Part shown: positions 4,625-27,356 of the stretch, one piece after another
How positions within the stretch are numbered: position 1 is the stretch's first letter
Layout of the letters: the number at the start of each line of letters is the position of its first letter
DNA from: a virus
Taxonomy: Duplodnaviria > Caudoviricetes
Length of the DNA stretch: 27,356 nucleotides
Virus record (IMG/VR): IMGVR_UViG_3300017909_001965
Span: 1 to 27,356 of that record
Strand: one strand, 5' to 3'
The notes under the pieces: generated by a model
Told to the model about the DNA's origin: nothing
What the model saw: the letters and a program-made list of their open reading frames with translations, nothing else
Database searches by the model: none
Program-made: the position numbers and the translations under genes

Positions 4625-4630
4625 ATCTTA
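4625..4630 (-). promoter_or_regulatory. Putative -10 box of a leaderless transcript
   Basis: TAAGAT-agagtt-ATG (6-nt spacer) with no SD before the 4618 start. Confidence 0.45.
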
Positions 4631-7600
4631 CTCAAATAATGTTGGGTCTTCGGTATTCAAATCTCTTTCTGTATCAATAGTGTCATTAAATTTAATTGCG
4701 TTACCAGTTCTACCTGTTATGTAATTTCTTATATCTTCTGATGTAATATCTTTAGGATTACCATTAAATACTTCTCTAATTATTACTGCATTAAATGCTC
4801 TTCTTACATTTGAATTAAGTTGTACTTTTTGTAGTATAAATTCTAGTTCTCCCATTTGATTTGATGTTGCAGCTCTATTTACTTGTGCATCAACATATTT
4901 CTTTTGTTTTCTATAATCACCAACTGCTAGACCATAGTTACTTGCATCTCTCCTAGCAACTTGACCAGCATTAAAATTAGTTGTTCCTCCAAATCTTTCT
5001 GGTTGATTACTTCCATAATGTGTTCCTGGAGTTGATTTAGGTTTTTTACCTCTAATCTCCATAGCATTTACTGACCTACCTTGAGAATCTCTTAATCTAG
5101 CATTACGCAAAAAATTATCAGCAGACTTTTCTATTTCAGCAGCTGCTTCATAAAACATACCCTGTTGGCTCATTTCACCTCTTCTAACTTTTTCTGCCAT
5201 TTTTGCTATTTCTTTTGGTGCTATTGCATCCGCAAACCCATCTATATCAAAAAATATAGAACTTTGAGCACTACTAAATTCTGCATCTCTAATTGCGTCT
5301 TCTCTATTACCAGGTGGTAATTTGATAACCTTTTGTTGTCCTTTAGATTTATCTCTTCCTTTAAATCTGTGTGAGTATATACCCTGTTGTCTAATAGATA
5401 AACTAAGCTTGTCAATATAAGTTAATTGAGTTTCAATTAGAACTGCCATTTCTGCAGGTTGCAAGTTTAAACCAGAACCATCAGGACCCTTAGCTATAAA
5501 ATTTCTAACTATTCTTTGATTAGTTTTGTAAACCAATTCTTCAAGTTGCACATCATTAAGACCTAATGTTGCTTGCTGTTTTTTAAGTATAGGTCTTATC
5601 TTATCTTTCAAGTCCATATTTATTCCTTGCGCTTGAAGTTGTCTTGCTGTAGCACTCAACCCCATTTGGCTCATAAACTTTGGGTCGTCAGGTGATGGTT
5701 CTTGCAATATTCTTAAATCGTCATAAGGAGTTCCACCAGCTAATTCTGCTGTATCTGAACTTACTACACCTTGTCCTCTTGCTGTACCGTATCCTACACT
5801 TCTACCAAACTGAGGTTTGTAACCAGTAATTTCATATACCTGCTGACCGGACTCTTCAGTCAAAACTCTCACATCATATAAACTTATATCAGGCTCATCA
5901 TAGGTTCTTTGTCCTACCCTCATATCAAACAAATCTCTAAATTCATCAGGAGCATCATCAGGTCCGTAAAATCTGAACTCAGAATTTTTTCTTGCAGCCG
6001 TTTGTGCTGTTTTTATATCTATAGCTGGATTGCCTGTGTTCATTGGAGTAAAAGCACTTCTACTGTCTCTTACTCCTTTTGATAAATATCTACCGCCAAA
6101 TATACCATCGTCAATAGTGTCACTCAATATCTCTAGTGTATTGGAATCTACATTGTTCCTCATGACTGCACTCTTATCTAACATAAGCCTTCCATTAGAT
6201 ACAAGTGGATTACCATGTCTATCCTTTCTGCTTTTTGCATACAATTCTTCCATAATCTTATCTTGTCTACCAGAAGATTTGTAAGTAGAACCATGAAGTA
6301 AAGCATCATTATTACCGTCAAACTTTTTACCAAATTGTTTTATTTGTTCTGATGATACTGCTCCCACTGGTTTCTTAGCAGACATGTTGAGACCATATGC
6401 AGTAGCTGCTTTAAGTCCTGCATTATACATAAGTAAGCTAGGAGTGAATACAAAAGCATCAGTTCTATTGTGTAACCTTCCAGCTCTATCAGTAGCAGGT
6501 CCACCCATCTCTATTTGGAAAGCATCTCTAATAGCATCGTTAGTTTTACTCTGTGGTGTTCTACCACCAAAGGCAACATTGATTTCAAAAGTAGAATCTT
6601 TTTTAGTTGTATCTGCTTCTTGTACATGAATAGCAGATTGAATTTGTCTTCTATTAGGAATGAAGTTATGTCTCTGTGGATTGTCATAACTTGTAGCGGT
6701 ATGTGTTTTACCATGATGTTCGTAGGTCTTATTAGCAGCTCTAACTTTTCTAAATTCATTTTCTTGAAAAGTACCAAAGTTTCCTTTTACAGTTTGTCTT
6801 CCAACTACTTTATTTACAGTCTTAATTCTTCTACCTGTTTCATATCTATTAGTTTTACTTGTAGTTTTTGGTTCATAAAATCTAGCATCCATAGCTTCTT
6901 TTGGTGTTAAGTCTCCAGCAGTGATACTTTCTATAAAATCAGCTTCCATAATTACAGTCTCTGTACTTTGCTTAATTATGTTCGAAGTTTGACTAGATGG
7001 AAAGTGTCTTGTAAAAGTACCGTCATCATGCAGCTCATCTATGTAATTACTGTAAAAAGTTTTTGAGCCTACTTTTTTTCTTGTGTATCTTGCTTCACCT
7101 AATAACTCAGTCATATCACCTCTTAAGTACCTTGAGGCATCTGCTACTTTACCAATTTCAGTTGAGTCTAAACCTTTTTCAAAAGTATTCTCTAATATTT
7201 TATTTACAATACCTCCTAGTAATCTATTCCTATCTGTTTTGTATCCGCCAGCGATAGCACCTAAACCTGATATCTCCTCTGCATCTCTTAGTACTTCAGA
7301 GTTTAAAATGTTTACAGCAGTCTCTACTAGTTGCTCTTGATTCATAGTACTAAGCTCACCAAAAGCATAAGTAGCACCTGCCATAGTTTTAAATTCTTCT
7401 AAAACTTCGTCATGATTAAAACCTAAATCTATAACAGATGAGTTGTTAGCCTTAGCAAATTTTTCTGCTGCACTTCTATCTGTAAACCTTGTAGGCTTCA
7501 TTACTGTTGCACCATCTACAGTGGTTCCTCTTGCACTTAAAACACTATATTCTCTTCTTTGGTCTCTTACTGCATTTGCATCTATTACATTTCTTATATC

Positions 7601-8278
7601 CTCAGACTTCAACATAGAATCAATATCTTCAGGAGTATATTGTTGAAAAGATATTGCAGCTGCTACTCCTTCATCGTTATAGCTCAGACCATCTCTTGTT
7701 CTGCTTCTTCTTTCTAAAGCATAATAATCAGGAGCATCAGCTATAGCTATAGCCTGAATGGACCTTGCAACTTTATCTAAACCTATTTTATTTTGTCTAG
7801 CAGCTTTTTTGACTTCGTTATCTACTTTCTTAGCATCTAGTTGAAACTCACCAAGTATTATATTTCTTGCTGTAGCCTCCATTCTTTTTAGTCTTAAAGA
7901 TGAAAATCTACCAGCTACAACTCTTAAATACCTTCCACCTAAACCACCCATTCCAGTAGGCATAACAGAACCTATTGCTGCACCAACAGCTCTACCACCT
8001 ACTTGATATACCATTCTTCGTATAATACTTTCACTTCTCATACGACCAGATGGTTGTTTCAAAGCAGCAAAGTCCCTTCTTCTTTGTAGAAATTGATATG
8101 AAGCTGTTCTAACTGCTTTACTATCTATACCTGATGCTGCAGAAAATGTACCTAAGTTATATGCAAATCTATAACCTTTGTCATCAAAAGAAGGAGAATC
8201 TCTTAAAGATTTGTAAAGTTGAGAAGGTCTTGCTACAGAACCTCTTAAATCTGAAACAAGATTACCTAAGTAACCCAT
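4628..8278 (-). CDS. Giant 1216-aa virion-module protein in the HK97 gp10-like slot
   Basis: Long ORF between head-closure and tail-terminator genes. It shows separated gp10-like motifs at about aa 167-184 and aa 545-620. The CDS is certain; the product call is tentative. Confidence 0.6.
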   Translation of the reverse strand: MGYLGNLVSDLRGSVARPSQLYKSLRDSPSFDDKGYRFAYNLGTFSAASGIDSKAVRTASYQFLQRRRDFAALKQPSGRMRSESIIRRMVYQVGGRAVGAAIGSVMPTGMGGLGGRYLRVVAGRFSSLRLKRMEATARNIILGEFQLDAKKVDNEVKKAARQNKIGLDKVARSIQAIAIADAPDYYALERRSRTRDGLSYNDEGVAAAISFQQYTPEDIDSMLKSEDIRNVIDANAVRDQRREYSVLSARGTTVDGATVMKPTRFTDRSAAEKFAKANNSSVIDLGFNHDEVLEEFKTMAGATYAFGELSTMNQEQLVETAVNILNSEVLRDAEEISGLGAIAGGYKTDRNRLLGGIVNKILENTFEKGLDSTEIGKVADASRYLRGDMTELLGEARYTRKKVGSKTFYSNYIDELHDDGTFTRHFPSSQTSNIIKQSTETVIMEADFIESITAGDLTPKEAMDARFYEPKTTSKTNRYETGRRIKTVNKVVGRQTVKGNFGTFQENEFRKVRAANKTYEHHGKTHTATSYDNPQRHNFIPNRRQIQSAIHVQEADTTKKDSTFEINVAFGGRTPQSKTNDAIRDAFQIEMGGPATDRAGRLHNRTDAFVFTPSLLMYNAGLKAATAYGLNMSAKKPVGAVSSEQIKQFGKKFDGNNDALLHGSTYKSSGRQDKIMEELYAKSRKDRHGNPLVSNGRLMLDKSAVMRNNVDSNTLEILSDTIDDGIFGGRYLSKGVRDSRSAFTPMNTGNPAIDIKTAQTAARKNSEFRFYGPDDAPDEFRDLFDMRVGQRTYDEPDISLYDVRVLTEESGQQVYEITGYKPQFGRSVGYGTARGQGVVSSDTAELAGGTPYDDLRILQEPSPDDPKFMSQMGLSATARQLQAQGINMDLKDKIRPILKKQQATLGLNDVQLEELVYKTNQRIVRNFIAKGPDGSGLNLQPAEMAVLIETQLTYIDKLSLSIRQQGIYSHRFKGRDKSKGQQKVIKLPPGNREDAIRDAEFSSAQSSIFFDIDGFADAIAPKEIAKMAEKVRRGEMSQQGMFYEAAAEIEKSADNFLRNARLRDSQGRSVNAMEIRGKKPKSTPGTHYGSNQPERFGGTTNFNAGQVARRDASNYGLAVGDYRKQKKYVDAQVNRAATSNQMGELEFILQKVQLNSNVRRAFNAVIIREVFNGNPKDITSEDIRNYITGRTGNAIKFNDTIDTERDLNTEDPTLFE

Positions 8279-12715: not shown

Positions 12716-15334
12716 TTAAACAGATGCGTTTGAATTTAGTGTCTTTTCTTTTGTAATATCTTTAATTACTGTTAGTTTTGAAATAGGTTGAGTTACTCGT
12801 CTATCTGTTTTCTTATGTTTTCCATTTTCTAAAATAGCCCATACTTGCATTGTTGCATCTTTACCATCAACAGAAACTACAACTCCATGAACGGTCGAAG
12901 GTGGGTCCGGGTCCTTATTGATTGACCAACTGACAGATTGCCCAACTCTAACACTAGCTGCTTTCTCCCCATCTTTTTTAGATGAGAGTGGATGAGAAGA
13001 AGGAAGCAAGTCTTGGTCATAAGGCTTTCTCTTAAATCTACCAGTTCTCAATGCGTGAAGGAACCCGTTAACTCTGGCCACTCCCCACTGGTCAGCTCCT
13101 GTAACATTACCTCGAACTGAACCAGGGTTTGTACGATAAGCACCTACACCTCTACGGAACACAGCAATTAAAGTTCTTAAGTTAGCCCTATGCTTAGGAT
13201 TTTTTGCGTTATGTTCCTTTACCTTGTTAGTTAATATCTTTCTGACATTAGCAGAAACCTTTTGTGAAAATACTTCATCTAGTATTTCACCTTGTAATTC
13301 TATACTTTTCTTTCTTCTTTCACGAACAAGTTTTTTTCTTTCGTTTATAATTTTTTTCATAGCAGGAACACCAATGTTTGAAACTCCACCCCATTTAATA
13401 TTTGCAATAGTTCCATTCAGTCTTGTGTTACCTTGATGTCTTCCCATGTAACGTTCTCTTCTTCTAACCCAATTAAGAACAGATTCGCTTCTATCACCTG
13501 CTTTATATTTAGCCCAGTTTCTATAAGCATCATTACCAGTAAATGATGTAGGAGGATTACCACCATTACCAGCTAATCTCCATATCTCTGGCCAATTTTC
13601 TTTTAAATCTTTAGCATAAGCAAAGGGAAACTCTCTATATTTAGAATTACTAATGGAAACTTTTTTGTCTTCACCAGGACTTGGGAAGTTTGTTCTATCC
13701 TTTTTTGGCTTTTCTTTCTTCTCACTACGCCATGAATCAGAATCAATCTCTTCCAATGCTTCAGCTTCTTCTGTAGATACTTTAATTTCTTCTACCTCAG
13801 CTTCTTTTTTCATGTTACTTAGAAAATCTTCAGCTTCTCTTCTAGTCTTAAAACATTTAACAACTTCTTGATTGTCATGTTTGATTACACAGAATGAACC
13901 ATTAGGCATTTGTGCTATATACTTTTCTTCTTCTATTCTTTGAGGTGACTCAACAACCATATTCCTTGTTGTTTCTGGTATTGCTTCTACAGTTCCTAAC
14001 AAAGCTTTACCTTCTTCATCAGGTGAGAATCTATCTCTTTCAAGTAACGGTTGACCATCTTCAGTTATTTGAACTGTGTTTAATGGTCTTAAGTATATAT
14101 TGTGTCTTTCGTCAGCATCCAGACCTACTACTTTTCTAGCTTCACCTATTGTTATCCAACCACCTTGCACACCTGTATTGACTCTTTTGTATAACTCATC
14201 CATATCTTCAGCAAGCGCTCTAACTTTGGTATAGTCAAATTCGCATGTTGCATTATCTTGACTAAAGTCTGGTTCAAGTAATTGATGTGTTAATTCAGAA
14301 GCAACCATTTTCCATAGAGGTATTAGTTTTTGTTCTGTAAAAAATTCTCTTAATTCTCTTGTATTGTTATAAGTTGCAGAATCTAAACCTGCACCAAGTC
14401 CAGCTAATATTGCAGGAACGCCAAGCACTGCAGATATTCTTTCTTCAGGTAATCTTCTTAATTCTTGAAGTTTCATTTGGTCAGGTGAAAATGAAACTAT
14501 ATCAACATTCATTGAACCAGATAAAACCATAGGAGCACCTCTGTTATTACCACCAAACTTTTGTTTGTATGATTCAGAAATAGCTTCTGCTTCTTCTCTA
14601 GTAGGACCACCAAGAGAATCGTTTCTTGGAGATAAAACAACTCCAGGTACAGCCATATTGTGTAATAGAGCAGCTGACCATTGTCCTGCAGCTTCGTCTC
14701 CTAGTATTTCTCTTAATACTCCTTTTAATGGAGCATGACCTCTTCTGTGGTCATTAGGGTCTATTCCTTGTCGGATATGTACTACATCGCCTACTGGAAT
14801 CTTTAAGTTTTCTCCACCTTTACCGTGTTGATAATATTCATAATGTGTTATTAGTTCTTCAGAGTTACCTCTTACTTCAACAAGGTTTGGCATTATGGGA
14901 ACTAATTGAACTACTTGACCTTGTGCGTTTCTGTTCTTATAAAGAAAAGCATCACCAATGGTATTTATTGCCAAAACAATATAGTGAGATAATAAACCTG
15001 CAGACATAAATGGATTAGGTCTTTTGTATAAATTTTCTACTGGGTGGTTATTCAAAATCTCTTTATTACCAAAGCTGTCCATTTTACAGATTTGTAACAA
15101 TGGTTCTGAAAAAGCAGTAGATAAAACATTTAAGCAAGCGATGACTGCGGAGTTAGCAGAACCATCACCAATCTCTCTTAATTTGTCTGTCTCCCAAAAT
15201 CCAGCGGATGTGTTATATCCATATACAGATAAATCTGCACCATAGGTTTGGTTATAGGTAGCTGTAGCCTTACTTTCAAACTCCCTACCTCTTAGAGCAT
15301 CGAAAGCTTTTTGAAATCTATTTCGTTCTGCCAT
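12716..15334 (-). CDS. Portal protein (HK97 family) with ~430-aa multi-domain C-terminal extension
   Basis: AVIACLNVLS, RPNPFMS, GDAFLY, VVHIR...GHAPL, ERISAVLGVP...ATYNN and GWITIGEARKVVGL motifs in the first ~430 aa. Confidence 0.95.
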   Translation of the reverse strand: MAERNRFQKAFDALRGREFESKATATYNQTYGADLSVYGYNTSAGFWETDKLREIGDGSANSAVIACLNVLSTAFSEPLLQICKMDSFGNKEILNNHPVENLYKRPNPFMSAGLLSHYIVLAINTIGDAFLYKNRNAQGQVVQLVPIMPNLVEVRGNSEELITHYEYYQHGKGGENLKIPVGDVVHIRQGIDPNDHRRGHAPLKGVLREILGDEAAGQWSAALLHNMAVPGVVLSPRNDSLGGPTREEAEAISESYKQKFGGNNRGAPMVLSGSMNVDIVSFSPDQMKLQELRRLPEERISAVLGVPAILAGLGAGLDSATYNNTRELREFFTEQKLIPLWKMVASELTHQLLEPDFSQDNATCEFDYTKVRALAEDMDELYKRVNTGVQGGWITIGEARKVVGLDADERHNIYLRPLNTVQITEDGQPLLERDRFSPDEEGKALLGTVEAIPETTRNMVVESPQRIEEEKYIAQMPNGSFCVIKHDNQEVVKCFKTRREAEDFLSNMKKEAEVEEIKVSTEEAEALEEIDSDSWRSEKKEKPKKDRTNFPSPGEDKKVSISNSKYREFPFAYAKDLKENWPEIWRLAGNGGNPPTSFTGNDAYRNWAKYKAGDRSESVLNWVRRRERYMGRHQGNTRLNGTIANIKWGGVSNIGVPAMKKIINERKKLVRERRKKSIELQGEILDEVFSQKVSANVRKILTNKVKEHNAKNPKHRANLRTLIAVFRRGVGAYRTNPGSVRGNVTGADQWGVARVNGFLHALRTGRFKRKPYDQDLLPSSHPLSSKKDGEKAASVRVGQSVSWSINKDPDPPSTVHGVVVSVDGKDATMQVWAILENGKHKKTDRRVTQPISKLTVIKDITKEKTLNSNASV

Positions 15335-18489: not shown

Positions 18490-18718
18490 CCAATGGTTTT
18501 AGGCGTGTAATCTTTTCAGGTATCTCATATCCCTGTGTTTCTAGCCAATAAAACATTTCATGTCTGGTAAATGGTCCTACTAACATAGGCTCATCATCTT
18601 TAGAAAGCCATATCTCCCAATACCAAACAGGTATTTTAGCTTTTCTTCTTTTCCTTTTGCCTTCGTTCTCGTCGAATAGCTCGTCTCTCACGTTCAGATT
18701 TACCACCCCAGATTCCAA
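18473..18718 (-). CDS. Hypothetical protein; start uncertain (possibly ATA at 18634)
   Basis: Fills the gap between whiB and the exonuclease. The annotated TTG start overlaps whiB by more than 80 nt. Confidence 0.55.
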   Translation of the reverse strand: MESGVVNLNVRDELFDENEGKRKRRKAKIPVWYWEIWLSKDDEPMLVGPFTRHEMFYWLETQGYEIPEKITRLKPLDDDGR

Positions 18719-18902
18719 ATCTCTCTTTGCGTTCTACTGCGAATTCTAAACACTCCTCTCTGACTTTACATTCTTTGCATATAGCCTTGGCTTTAACTGT
18801 TGAGCCACCTCTTTCTGGGAAAAACAAGTCCTGATTCTCTCCCATACAATTAGCATCTTTATAAAATTCTGGTATCTCTAGTATGTCGGCCAGCGTCGCT
18901 AT
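18636..18902 (-). CDS. whiB: WhiB-family Fe-S transcriptional regulator (extended to a proposed ATA start, 88 aa)
   Basis: ANC...DLFFP...AKAICKECKVREEC...FGIWGGKSERERR: four Cys plus GIWGG. The first Cys is the codon just upstream of the ATG at 18845. Confidence 0.93.
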   Translation of the reverse strand: MATLADILEIPEFYKDANCMGENQDLFFPERGGSTVKAKAICKECKVREECLEFAVERKERFGIWGGKSERERRAIRRERRQKEKKKS

Positions 18903-23940: not shown

Positions 23941-24924
23941 ATGTGTGTAATCGCTAGCCTCCCACGAGGCAAAAACATATCCAACAAGAACCTCGACCAG
24001 ATGTGGAAGAGAAACCCAGATGGTGGTGGTATTGCTTGGATACAAGACGGTAAAATCCAAGTCTACAAGACTATGGAACTCAAGGACTTCAAGCAGAAGT
24101 TTAAAGAGGTAACAAGCAAGTATGGTGATTCAGACATACTGGTACACATGAGGATAGCAACTCATGGTTCAGTTTGTCTTGACAACAATCATCCATTCCA
24201 TATCGATACGCAGACTGTGTTTGCTCACAATGGCATTATGCCTCATGAGTTTCACCCACCTGCTAAATCAGACTTGTCTGATACAAGATACTTCAACAAA
24301 GTATTCTTGCAGAACATGAAGCCAATAGCATTGGACGACGAACTGTTCCGTACTGCTGTCGGTGACATCATCGGTATGGGTAACAAGCTAGTCATCTTGT
24401 CAGCCAACAAGAAGCTCAAGCAAGATTCATATATTATCAATGAGCATCTTGGTCAATGGGTCAAGGGCGTATGGTATTCCAATACAGCTCACATCCCAAG
24501 CAAGGGTGTCAAGTATGACAAAACAGGTGCAACAATTGGCAACCATCAACAAGGTACGATATGGAACGGATTTGACGGGACATTCGAACATGTTGATGAC
24601 TCATGCGAAATTGAGATAGCACCAGACGTTGACAGTAGCTGGTTTGACGAAGTAGAAGTCAATGACGAGTACTGGTGGTGTGAGACTATACCAGAAGAGG
24701 AGCTAGAGAAGGAATCAGTGCAAGAACAGATTGAGGAATTCTTAGAAGCTGCTGAAGGTAAGTACATGTACCAATACGAAACCTTTGATGACTGTATGGC
24801 AGACTTTGCAATACATTATGATGGTGGTTTCAGATGTCATGAATGTGGGCTACCAGTCAAGGCTGAATCTGGAAAGGTCGTAAGAGATTGTGACGTGGAA
24901 TGTTCAGCTAGGGTGTTTAGCTAA
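23941..24924 (+). CDS. Class II glutamine amidotransferase (Ntn hydrolase) with acidic, Cys-containing C-terminal tail
   Basis: N-terminal nucleophile M-C; NPDGGG, HMRIATHG, NNHPF, FAHNG and SDT motifs. Confidence 0.92.
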   Translation: MCVIASLPRGKNISNKNLDQMWKRNPDGGGIAWIQDGKIQVYKTMELKDFKQKFKEVTSKYGDSDILVHMRIATHGSVCLDNNHPFHIDTQTVFAHNGIMPHEFHPPAKSDLSDTRYFNKVFLQNMKPIALDDELFRTAVGDIIGMGNKLVILSANKKLKQDSYIINEHLGQWVKGVWYSNTAHIPSKGVKYDKTGATIGNHQQGTIWNGFDGTFEHVDDSCEIEIAPDVDSSWFDEVEVNDEYWWCETIPEEELEKESVQEQIEEFLEAAEGKYMYQYETFDDCMADFAIHYDGGFRCHECGLPVKAESGKVVRDCDVECSARVFS

Positions 24925-25313
24925 TGGCTGTACCAGACTGGAACAGAGTAGAAGGGGTGGTATCAACCACCTCTCCTACCGAGCAAGGTGAAAGATATAT
25001 TATGTCAGATGCTGCTTCTTATGATAACGATTCAATCGTAAGAGTAACAACTCATCATGAAGGTAGAGCTACATACCATGAACGTGGTACAACTACATTC
25101 ACTGTGCAACAAATAATAGATGATGGCTTGATGAATGGACATTGGGACAGAGAAGTAATTGATAACGGTCTCATACCTAATCGTCAAGAAATTCACGATT
25201 ATGCCAGAGAATGGATGTATGAATCAGGTGAAGTTGATGATTACGTAGACATTGACTACTCAGACTATGACCAAACTGATTGGGAAGTAGACGATATAGA
25301 AATAATAAACTAA
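24924..25313 (+). CDS. Acidic lysine-free protein A (paralog of 26381..26776)
   Basis: TAATG coupling to the amidotransferase; MAVPDWNRVEG start. Confidence 0.8.
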   Translation: MAVPDWNRVEGVVSTTSPTEQGERYIMSDAASYDNDSIVRVTTHHEGRATYHERGTTTFTVQQIIDDGLMNGHWDREVIDNGLIPNRQEIHDYAREWMYESGEVDDYVDIDYSDYDQTDWEVDDIEIIN

Positions 25314-25325
25314 CAAGGAGGAAAT

Positions 25326-26384
25326 ATGACGGAAGTCAATTTCGAATCGGAGGGACGTGCAAGGTCTCTCCGAGAATCAATACACTATAGTATGGACACA
25401 CAAGTGAACAGCTATAGTACAAGACCAGCATATTATTTCTTCTCACCAGAGAAGATGATAAAGAGTTGGACAAGAGCTACGAAAGTAGAATCTAACTTCA
25501 TAGATAACTATGGGATACCAATGGGTATGGAACTAGAGGTAGAACGTAGAAACTATGTTGGACGTGAAGATGATGCAGATAACATTCGTCACATTAACAA
25601 AGATGCGATGTGGAACTACTACATCAAACGCTTTGGTGAGTATACGAATGATGTTACTGCTGGTGTTGTTGACACACCCGTACAGTTCTTCATAGCTAAG
25701 GAAGATGGTTCACTATCTAATGGTGTTGAGTTTGTATCTCAACCTATGACATTAGGTATGTGGAGCAAAATACCTTTGTTGTTTGAAGACATTACTGGTG
25801 ATTATGCTGCTTACCATAGACGTACTACTGGTTTGCACATACACATACCAAAGGGTGCATTCGAAGATAGTCATCTTCATAGATGGTTACATTTGATGAA
25901 AGCATTAGGTAGTACTCCTGTGAATCACAGAAGATTATCTAATGTCTTAGCACTTATTGGTCAAAGACAGTTTAACAACTGGGCAAGGTTCATTATGCCA
26001 GAGTACAGAAATGTTAAATCACAACTAGCACAGGTAGCTATTGATAGAGTCAATCATGATGGTGGCAGGTACAAGTTCTTGAACTTCAATCCTGGTTCAA
26101 CTATCGAATTAAGATTCTTCAAGGCTAACATGCAGACACAGAGGATACTAAAGAACTTAGAGTTTGTTGACGCAACCTATGAGTTCACTAAGGGCATGAC
26201 TGATATGACACAATGTAATATCAACATGTTCACTTGGTATCTAAGAAACCATTCAATCAAGTATCAGAACTTACTTGAATATCTTGACGCACACAGTGAC
26301 AAGATTGATTGGGACTACAAATATGACCTTGACTCTTTTGAGTTGGAGGCACAAGAAAATATGAGGGAAGGAGAGTTGGTATGA
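25326..26384 (+). CDS. Second putative amidoligase (COOH-NH2 ligase)
   Basis: MGMELE, KEDGSLSNGVEFVSQP, TGLHIH, RYKFLN and TIELRFF motifs; AAGGAGG RBS. Confidence 0.9.
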   Translation: MTEVNFESEGRARSLRESIHYSMDTQVNSYSTRPAYYFFSPEKMIKSWTRATKVESNFIDNYGIPMGMELEVERRNYVGREDDADNIRHINKDAMWNYYIKRFGEYTNDVTAGVVDTPVQFFIAKEDGSLSNGVEFVSQPMTLGMWSKIPLLFEDITGDYAAYHRRTTGLHIHIPKGAFEDSHLHRWLHLMKALGSTPVNHRRLSNVLALIGQRQFNNWARFIMPEYRNVKSQLAQVAIDRVNHDGGRYKFLNFNPGSTIELRFFKANMQTQRILKNLEFVDATYEFTKGMTDMTQCNINMFTWYLRNHSIKYQNLLEYLDAHSDKIDWDYKYDLDSFELEAQENMREGELV

Positions 26385-26776
26385 CTATACCACAATGGAA
26401 TCTAGCAGAAGGAACAGCTACTAGTATTAGCAACTTAAGAAACGCAGGTAACTGGGATGATATGGGTGTTTACTTTGACGTATCACGTACTGAAGTAAGA
26501 CATCACTATCACAGCACAAGTGCTCGTGTTTCTATTGATACACTAGTGGAACTTAACTTACTACCAGAATCATCATTCACTATTGAACAAGATTCAATGG
26601 GTGGTACACATGTTGACTACAACGGTAGTGAATATGATATGAGTCGTGCTATTCAAGAATATGTTGACAATCACATGGACCATGATGATGAGTTTATGTA
26701 TTCAGAATCACAAGACAATGACTTTGCCGAATGGTACGGTCCAGCTAGTTATGACGATTACTATGACTGGGAATAG
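26381..26776 (+). CDS. Acidic lysine-free protein B (paralog of 24924..25313)
   Basis: ATGA overlap with ligase 2; AAGGAG RBS; MTIPQWNLAEG start. Confidence 0.8.
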   Translation: MTIPQWNLAEGTATSISNLRNAGNWDDMGVYFDVSRTEVRHHYHSTSARVSIDTLVELNLLPESSFTIEQDSMGGTHVDYNGSEYDMSRAIQEYVDNHMDHDDEFMYSESQDNDFAEWYGPASYDDYYDWE

Positions 26777-26878: not shown

Positions 26879-26922
26879 AGTATATAGGGTCTATCTAAAC
26901 AGGTAGACCTTATTATATTTTA
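26876..26922 (+). terminator. 47-nt hairpin ending the ligase operon (terminator or processing site)
   Basis: TAAAGTATA-TAGGGTCTATCT-AAAC-AGGTAGACCTTA-T-TATATTTTA, 21 bp including G-U pairs. Confidence 0.7.
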
Positions 26923-27046
26923 AGACTAGGATTTAGGGCATTTTGTTGTCAGCATGGCAGAGGTCTATCCTGTCGGATATATAGGGAAAAAAATTTGCCA
27001 ACCAACCTTTCTCCTAATGCGACATTTTTCAAGGTGGGTAATGAGA

Positions 27047-27257
27047 TTTAACCATCAGGCCGTCTGGGTTTTACCATCAGGGTTTTAACTTACAACATCA
27101 AGGTCAATGTTTATAGGGTTTGTGTCTTGTAAGTAAGTTTCTCTTCAGGTCTGGCTGTGCATCTACCTTCTTCTTTGCGACACATACCTCAATGTTTATA
27201 GGCTTTTGTGTCGTGGCGGCGAAGCAGCGTGCTGCGCAGCATCTTTTTGGCCGGCCA
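27047..27257. repeat. Non-coding region with direct repeats and palindromes
   Basis: ACCATCAGG twice; TCAATGTTTATAGG-(1 or 2 nt)-TTTGTGTC at 27104 and 27189; palindromes TGCTGCGCAGCA (27230) and TGGCCGGCCA (27248). Confidence 0.6.
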
Positions 27258-27356
27258 GAGCCAGGCCGATTGTTTCACAACACATTTAGGACTTAATAAA
27301 TTTATTAATTCTTCTGTAACCTTTTCTGGTTTTTGAGTGTCTAAGTAAGGCAAGCA

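Follow-up and report, generated by a model that had tools for sequence, protein, structure and literature searches.

Phage genes of the Amidoligase_2 family are known from cassettes with a glutamine amidotransferase (GATase), as in mycobacteriophage Marvin (gp105-106), the OM43 phage MEP402 (gp06-07) and RIO-1-like podoviruses; the parts of the published accounts that were available propose cell-wall change, superinfection exclusion or metabolites as their roles, all of them predictions described there as still to be explored (PMC10580990, PMC5498523). In the present study, a stretch of 27,356 nt from a marine virus of the Caudoviricetes (the whole of IMG/VR record IMGVR_UViG_3300017909_001965), referred to here as the window, was analysed. 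It carries in one operon the same enzyme families as the cassettes of Amidoligase_2 (PF12224) and class II GATase, with or without GGACT, and a relative also has GGACT. The PF12224 motifs and an adjacent class II GATase with an N-terminal Cys place the locus among these cassettes. It differs from them in having two ligases and two tagged, probably paralogous small proteins, A and B, whereas the published roles, in the parts of the papers that were available, name no protein partner. No description of tagged or lysine-free partners of amidoligases was found in the literature searched, which consisted mostly of non-subscription papers without their supplements. The enzymes are of a known, uncharacterised kind, and the small-protein family matches no library searched. 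Acidic proteins unrelated to A and B, with one lysine each, lie near the amidoligase genes of Marvin (gp104; L017:5262-5684) and MEP402 (gp02; L018:309-578); the Marvin ligase is itself very lysine-poor (6 Lys, 40 Arg), so genome composition may explain the low lysine of gp104.

Other described systems share part of this arrangement. As in the Pup/PafA/Dop system, an acidic small protein is found beside a carboxylate-amine ligase and lysine-directed chemistry is plausible; in contrast to it, the ligases here match PF12224 and not PF03136, conservation is N-terminal, there is no C-terminal GG[EQ], and the small proteins are predicted to be folded where Pup is disordered. Ocr-type acidic phage DNA mimics provide a further comparison: A and B are likewise small and strongly negative (net charge -19 to -28, median -23, in 52 relatives) and lie in a block typical of host take-over, but neither a sequence match nor a structural one reaching Z 5 was found. 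F-box proteins combine a constant docking part with a variable part, an arrangement that A and B, with a proposed docking tag and a variable core, would resemble. Lysine-desert ubiquitin substrate receptors, in the parts of the papers available, likewise have a lysine-free region beside a ligase and leftover lysines at one end (PMC13696103, PMC10665810), whereas here there is no ubiquitin or E1-E3 machinery and no sequence relation, and with the 37% GC of the window GC bias is no explanation. The T7 kinase, as far as its available description goes, is a phage modifier (PMC13645617); here, in contrast, separate proteins that can be swapped would do the targeting, and the proposed chemistry is amide formation.

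The operon and its enzymes

The window has HK97-type head genes, tail genes, a terminase gene and, on the minus strand, a WhiB gene. Its plus-strand block ends with five genes, encoding amidoligase 1, the GATase, A, amidoligase 2 and B (Table 1).

Table 1. Features of the operon in the window, with coordinates counted from the first letter of the window.
Feature	Position	Strand	Remarks
Amidoligase 1, 654 aa	21947..23911	+	Matches Pfam PF12224 at E 7e-07, passing the cut-off
Class II glutamine amidotransferase-like protein (GATase), 327 aa	23941..24924	+	Pfam PF13230, E 4e-07
Protein A, 129 aa	24924..25313	+	0 Lys, net charge -22; hypervariable; belongs to the tagged acidic family
N-terminal tag of A, M-A-V-P-D-W-N	24924..24944	+	P, W and N invariant in 52/52 relatives
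Lysine-free core of A, residues 36-128	25029..25307	+	Predicted strand-three helices-strand; model pLDDT 70
Amidoligase 2, 352 aa	25326..26384	+	Pfam PF12224, E 2e-05
Protein B, 131 aa	26381..26776	+	0 Lys, net charge -22; second subfamily; predicted hairpin insert
N-terminal tag of B, M-T-I-P-Q-W-N	26381..26401	+	
Terminator-like hairpin after the operon	26884..26913	+	13-pair stem; consensus scan only

The start of A overlaps the stop codon of the GATase gene, and the start of B that of the amidoligase 2 gene. A promoter scan gave fewer matches than chance (16 against 25.5). Two RNA-labelled and two unlabelled sequencing runs were considered as contigs, which cannot show transcription; the RNA runs span parts of the enzymes and B, not A. 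Past the operon there is a non-coding stretch (27040-27356) which, by eye only, is alike at its end in two related loci (L003:9950-10170 and L006:9800-10150).

Three further genes of the window, all on the minus strand, have features of their own. The portal protein of 872 aa (12716-15334) is extended at length on its C-terminal side and matches DUF5824 weakly, and the ORF of a relative is 667 aa. A protein of 1,216 aa (4628-8278) between the head-completion and tail genes has no Pfam or PHROG match. The listed ORF start of the WhiB gene (18636-18845) omits a first Cys region that is present in the L003 copy, therefore the true start is probably upstream.

Amidoligase 1 consists of an N-terminal region with two invariant CxxC pairs and a C-terminal Amidoligase_2 domain, to which amidoligase 2 is 26% identical. 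Both ligases keep the ExE, D, E, HxH and ExR motifs in 7/7 aligned homologs, residues that we take to be the catalytic residues of a glutamine-synthetase-like fold. No solved relative of amidoligase 2 was found by sequence search. In the GATase, Cys directly follows the first Met and the tail is acidic and Cys-rich; matches to GlmS, EgtC and PurF are weak, far below cut-offs. A gamma-glutamyl cyclotransferase, an enzyme that suits gamma-glutamyl amide chemistry, is encoded by the complete relative G001 (PF06094; 64613-64987) and by L004 (10795-11166, minus strand), where the gene follows B at a distance of about 1.1 kb and lies on the opposite strand; none was found in the window, which is itself a genome fragment. 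In a sister clade (L012, L015 and L016), amidoligase 1 is longer by 250-320 aa and amidoligase 2 (L012:7168-8373, L015:7070-8320, L016:6915-8168) has a Cys- and acid-rich insertion directly after ExE.

Tag, lysine pattern and divergence of the small proteins

An earlier note, made from the sequence alone, had described A and B as lysine-free paralogs, and its counts hold: there are 0 Lys and 13 Arg (8+5) in 260 residues, with 23.3% D+E in A and 20.6% in B, as against the 21-23% first estimated. Lysine is abundant elsewhere, as had been claimed, making up 6.5% of the 32 listed genes of the window, so that 0/260 in A and B has a P of about 3e-8. As to paralogy, the aligned blocks on which it was based show up in the family alignment, and the local alignment score of A with B (76) was reached by 0/2,000 shuffles (mean 35.5). 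BLASTP identity is 22% (composition correction off), and when the profiles of the A and B subfamilies were compared with each other, only the first 14 columns were recovered, at a probability of 72%, against 95% over 68 columns for A with the C/D subfamilies. Past the tag, paralogy of A and B is therefore likely rather than proven, and rests on the shuffle score and on the similar strand-helix-helix-strand layout predicted for both.

In the AlphaFold models (pLDDT 70 each; pTM 0.57 for A and 0.43 for B), a low-confidence N-terminus leads into a long strand, after which come helices and, to close the fold, another strand. Fold searches with both models against 48,161 chains gave no row at Z 5 or more; T7 Gp2 (Z 2.9, rmsd 3.3, 52 aligned) and PurS, which is among the top rows for A (Z 3.8, rmsd 3.1, 53 aligned), are both within the background. 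Likewise, Pfam, PHROG and NCBIfam have no family for A or B above noise (E 0.01 for Pfam and PHROG), and the ESM Atlas gave sub-0.8 leads at most for A and nothing for B. A suspected resemblance to DpnD/PcfM-type small proteins found no Pfam support. Complex prediction for amidoligase 1 with A gave a score of 0.02, which counts neither for nor against binding.

The family was defined as 52 distinct full-length relatives from protein and locus searches, 21 of them at under 50% identity, after the exclusion of seven fragments or chimeric ends (P0003, P0008-10, P0026, P0029, P0038), of P0032 and P0036, which are long repeat proteins, and of two B copies truncated at the ends of contigs. All 52 open with M-x(0-3)-[IV]-P-x-W-N, with P, W and N the only invariant columns, a count that is biased in that the motif scan picked 24 of the 25 members with DNA context, one more coming from the family profile, and in that the motif also raises the profile scores of the other 27. 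Of the shared start M[AT][VI]PxWNxxEG that had been read from A and B, [IV]PxWN is thus common to the family and xxEG is not conserved. At residue 2, 49/52 relatives have T, A, G, V or S. Ligase/GATase loci house all 25 members with DNA context, with a single copy in L006, two each in the window and in L107, and three in L003. The family tree was made by a quick method and has long branches, and no order of events was drawn from it.

When viral contigs were scanned for the tag motif, 114 loci were obtained, with the family present on only 3 contigs and many of the others belonging to one family of 241-245 aa. As unrelated phage proteins start with the motif too, PxWN may simply be a helix cap. 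The replication genes include one for a protein of 160 aa (L010:12413-12895, minus strand; G001 54611-55093) that starts MIPNWN and has 19% D+E and 8 Lys; its homolog in L032 has A for P, so that chance or a second use of the tag may be involved. An IPAWD stretch in amidoligase 1 that looks like the tag was set aside, as L006 and L107 do not share it. Small untagged acidic proteins encoded in the operons of two related loci (L003:9106-9312, L107:3634-3867) resemble a minimal strand-helix-strand core and have 3 Lys each. In the GTDB genomes, a search for a prophage copy gave 41 pattern matches, 0 of which were confirmed. The sister phages G004 and G005, which may be fragments, have the same three enzymes and gave 0 family matches, and there is likewise no family member beside the enzymes in L012, L015 and L016.

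Lysine is absent altogether in 25/52 relatives. With the border between head and body set at five residues after WN, the bodies of the 52 have 18 Lys and 325 Arg in 6,165 residues (0.3% and 5.3%) and the heads have 34 Lys in 635 residues (5.4%). For the 21 representatives under 50% identity, there are 3 Lys against 136 Arg in the body and 4.7% Lys in the head. By alignment columns, 2 Lys stand against 260 Arg in the 4,790 residues of the folded core, and the pre-core columns have 42 Lys in 1,552 residues. Comparison with equally acidic phage proteins, which the earlier note had proposed as a check, was made using 274 ORFs from 17 phage stretches, 43 of which are of 80-250 aa with at least 18% D+E: lysine makes up 1.1% of the 11 tag-bearing proteins against 8.1% of the 32 others (p 1.5e-6, which is optimistic as the rows are related). 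In addition, 3-5 Lys were counted in each of five acidic neighbours that are 59-77 aa long and have no tag. Because equally acidic proteins of the same phages and the untagged neighbours keep lysine, acidity, GC content and charge do not account for the loss. On these counts, the loss is conserved, confined to the core and specific to lysine rather than to positive charge, which fits the avoidance of a lysine-directed reaction that had been suggested for it. The lysine share K/(K+R) is 0.27-0.55 in 14 ligases against 0.58-0.76 in 6 GATases; the sister-clade ligases, which have no family members beside them, are equally lysine-poor, therefore the lysine-poverty of the ligases does not depend on the small proteins.

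Identity of A to the window copy is 46-47% in L002, L020 and L023, 51% in L024 and 77% in L021 and L022, while the GATase and amidoligase 2 of the same loci are 91-98% identical to those of the window and B is 85-95% identical. Between A and its L021 copy there are 30 non-synonymous and 7 synonymous codon differences, compared with 14/29 and 22/35 for the enzymes against L001. One base separates 33/94 core codons of A from a lysine codon. From these comparisons, A diversifies or is swapped quickly, its core still gaining no lysine. The tolerance of lysine in the head, the hypervariability of A and the one to three copies in relatives are points absent from the earlier note.

Possible roles of A and B

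A tag that stays constant on a flexible head, a core that is acidic and variable, several copies beside a ligase and lysine loss in the core only are as expected of substrate receptors at a lysine-modifying site. The explanation preferred here, tentatively and at somewhat less than even confidence, is that A and B are tagged, exchangeable adaptors that dock on a ligase of the phage and bring it basic host proteins, whose lysines would be the sites of amide modification, while the core of the adaptors is itself lysine-free. Docking on the enzyme would be by the fixed IPxWN tag and binding of a basic host protein by the variable acidic core, and the ligase would then form an amide on a lysine of that protein. 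The core was likely purged of lysine as it would be within reach of the active site, and the head, held at the docking site, could keep lysine. The GATase, with the cyclotransferase of the relative, would supply ammonia or remove gamma-glutamyl amides. Starting from the operon, the tag, the lysine pattern, the constant charge and the hypervariability, we infer the enzyme activity, the docking, the class of target and the reason for the lysine loss.

Intact catalytic motifs in both ligases, the lysine-poor ligases and the cyclotransferase of the relative were also counted as support for the adaptor model. Precedents, in the parts of the papers available, are the lysine deserts in components of the ubiquitin system (PMC13696103) and, for a targeted phage modifier, the T7 kinase steered to nucleic-acid-binding defence proteins (PMC13645617). 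Against the model are the sister phages with three enzymes but no detectable family member, the motif on unrelated proteins, the bias in the 52/52 count and the normal lysine content of the GATase; the literature searched gave no activity for any Amidoligase_2 enzyme, and published ideas favour cell-wall modification. A wider form of the model, which is doubtful, would have a ubiquitin-free phage protein ligase of the glutamine-synthetase fold aimed at host nucleic-acid-binding or defence proteins by interchangeable, IPxWN-plugged DNA-mimic adaptors, evolving in an arms race, with lysine deserts selected to escape the phage's own ligase.

The same tag and the same asymmetry of lysine between head and core would be seen if A and B were themselves the substrates, in a leader-plus-core style: the tag would be recognised and Asp or Glu of the core activated, then amidated or joined to lysines of other proteins, and a lysine in the core would quench the activated carboxyl. 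This main rival, which is rather unlikely, draws on the 25% D+E of the core, on E53, invariant in 20 A-type sequences, and on residue 2, which by the rule for removal of the N-terminal Met would put a free N-terminal amine close to the tag. It has to contend with the absence of a family-wide invariant acid (the best columns are 85% D/E), with a core predicted to be folded and not a flexible peptide, and with a rapid allele change that suits target recognition better than a fixed product. For the RiPP-like precursor with a conserved leader, offered earlier as an alternative, a conserved leader-like tag and a variable core are present, and no leader peptidase or export gene was recognised in the operon using Pfam and PHROG. 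Alternatively, A and B could act on their own as acidic inhibitors, similar to DNA mimics, of host nucleic-acid-binding proteins and have no more in common with the enzymes than an early operon, having lost lysine to survive indiscriminate lysine modification by the phage or for charge. The narrow range of net charge, the hypervariability and the enzymes without family members in the sister clade would all suit such inhibitors, but charge alone leaves 5.3% Arg against 0.3% Lys unexplained, as is the invariant tag on a low-confidence linker, and other early acidic proteins keep lysine; this explanation is unlikely. Translational coupling to both enzymes could also point to small subunits with a structural part in linking the glutaminase with the ligases, for amidation of small molecules or of the cell wall, as PurS, which is among the top structural rows for A, does in PurLQS. 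A cell-wall role is proposed in the available parts of the literature. That A and B are such subunits is improbable, given that Z under 5 is background, that a scaffold between 96%-conserved enzymes should not drop to 46% identity and that lysine loss is not predicted.

Two explanations involve Pup. The earlier note had likened the terminal Glu of B and the terminal Asn of A, both correctly identified, to Pup-E and Pup-Q, so that A and B would be modifiers ligated via the C-terminal residue. B ends in Glu in close relatives, and amidoligases are assigned the glutamine-synthetase-like fold of PafA. Across the 52 relatives, the last residue varies among 12 amino acids (E 20, N 14, I 5, Q, D, S and A 2 each, T, R, H, V and G 1 each), with close relatives of A ending in H, D or T and relatives of B in N, D, A or G, and a conserved ligation-ready end is therefore refuted. 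There is in addition no GG[EQ] end, two subfamilies have C-terminal extensions, and the cores are predicted to be folded (mean pLDDT 70), not matching Pup-type intrinsic disorder; ligation of A and B as Pup-like modifiers is hardly credible.

Loss of lysine to escape a host Pup-proteasome system, a hypothesis already published for mycobacteriophages, is very improbable here. WhiB points to an actinobacterial host, and Pup ligase is present in 114/151 Acidimicrobiia genomes; 7/10 WhiB matches in GTDB are to Acidimicrobiia, with WhiB identity not discriminating among hosts. All listed genomes with Pup ligase are, however, at least 1.5 Mb, and 18/20 of those listed without it are 0.9-1.1 Mb (17 more without it are unlisted). 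Three small Pup-ligase-negative genomes have 34-36% GC at the WhiB locus, like the phage, against 63-73% for larger ones. The host group is likely, rather than proven, to be these small low-GC Acidimicrobiia genomes. Ca. Actinomarinales have genomes of about 1.1 Mb and 32.5% GC, and WhiB-bearing phages of 33.6-36.5% GC, according to the available part of the source (PMC7771536); the small genomes and the phage host would probably belong there. As the likely host group showed no Pup ligase, escape from host pupylation is argued against, as it also is by the exposed head, which keeps lysine, and by the remaining phage proteome, which is lysine-rich.

Meaning for amidoligase cassettes

Amidoligase_2/GATase cassettes occur in many phages, with roles that are only predicted in the literature examined, as far as its sources were available. 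The A/B family gives these cassettes candidate partners, a short tag open to mutagenesis and a strong indication of lysine as the reactive amine, and the question of cassette function becomes directly testable. It is also an unusually clean lysine desert, with low GC, Arg kept, matched controls and fast evolution, which bears on whether lysine deserts are selected.
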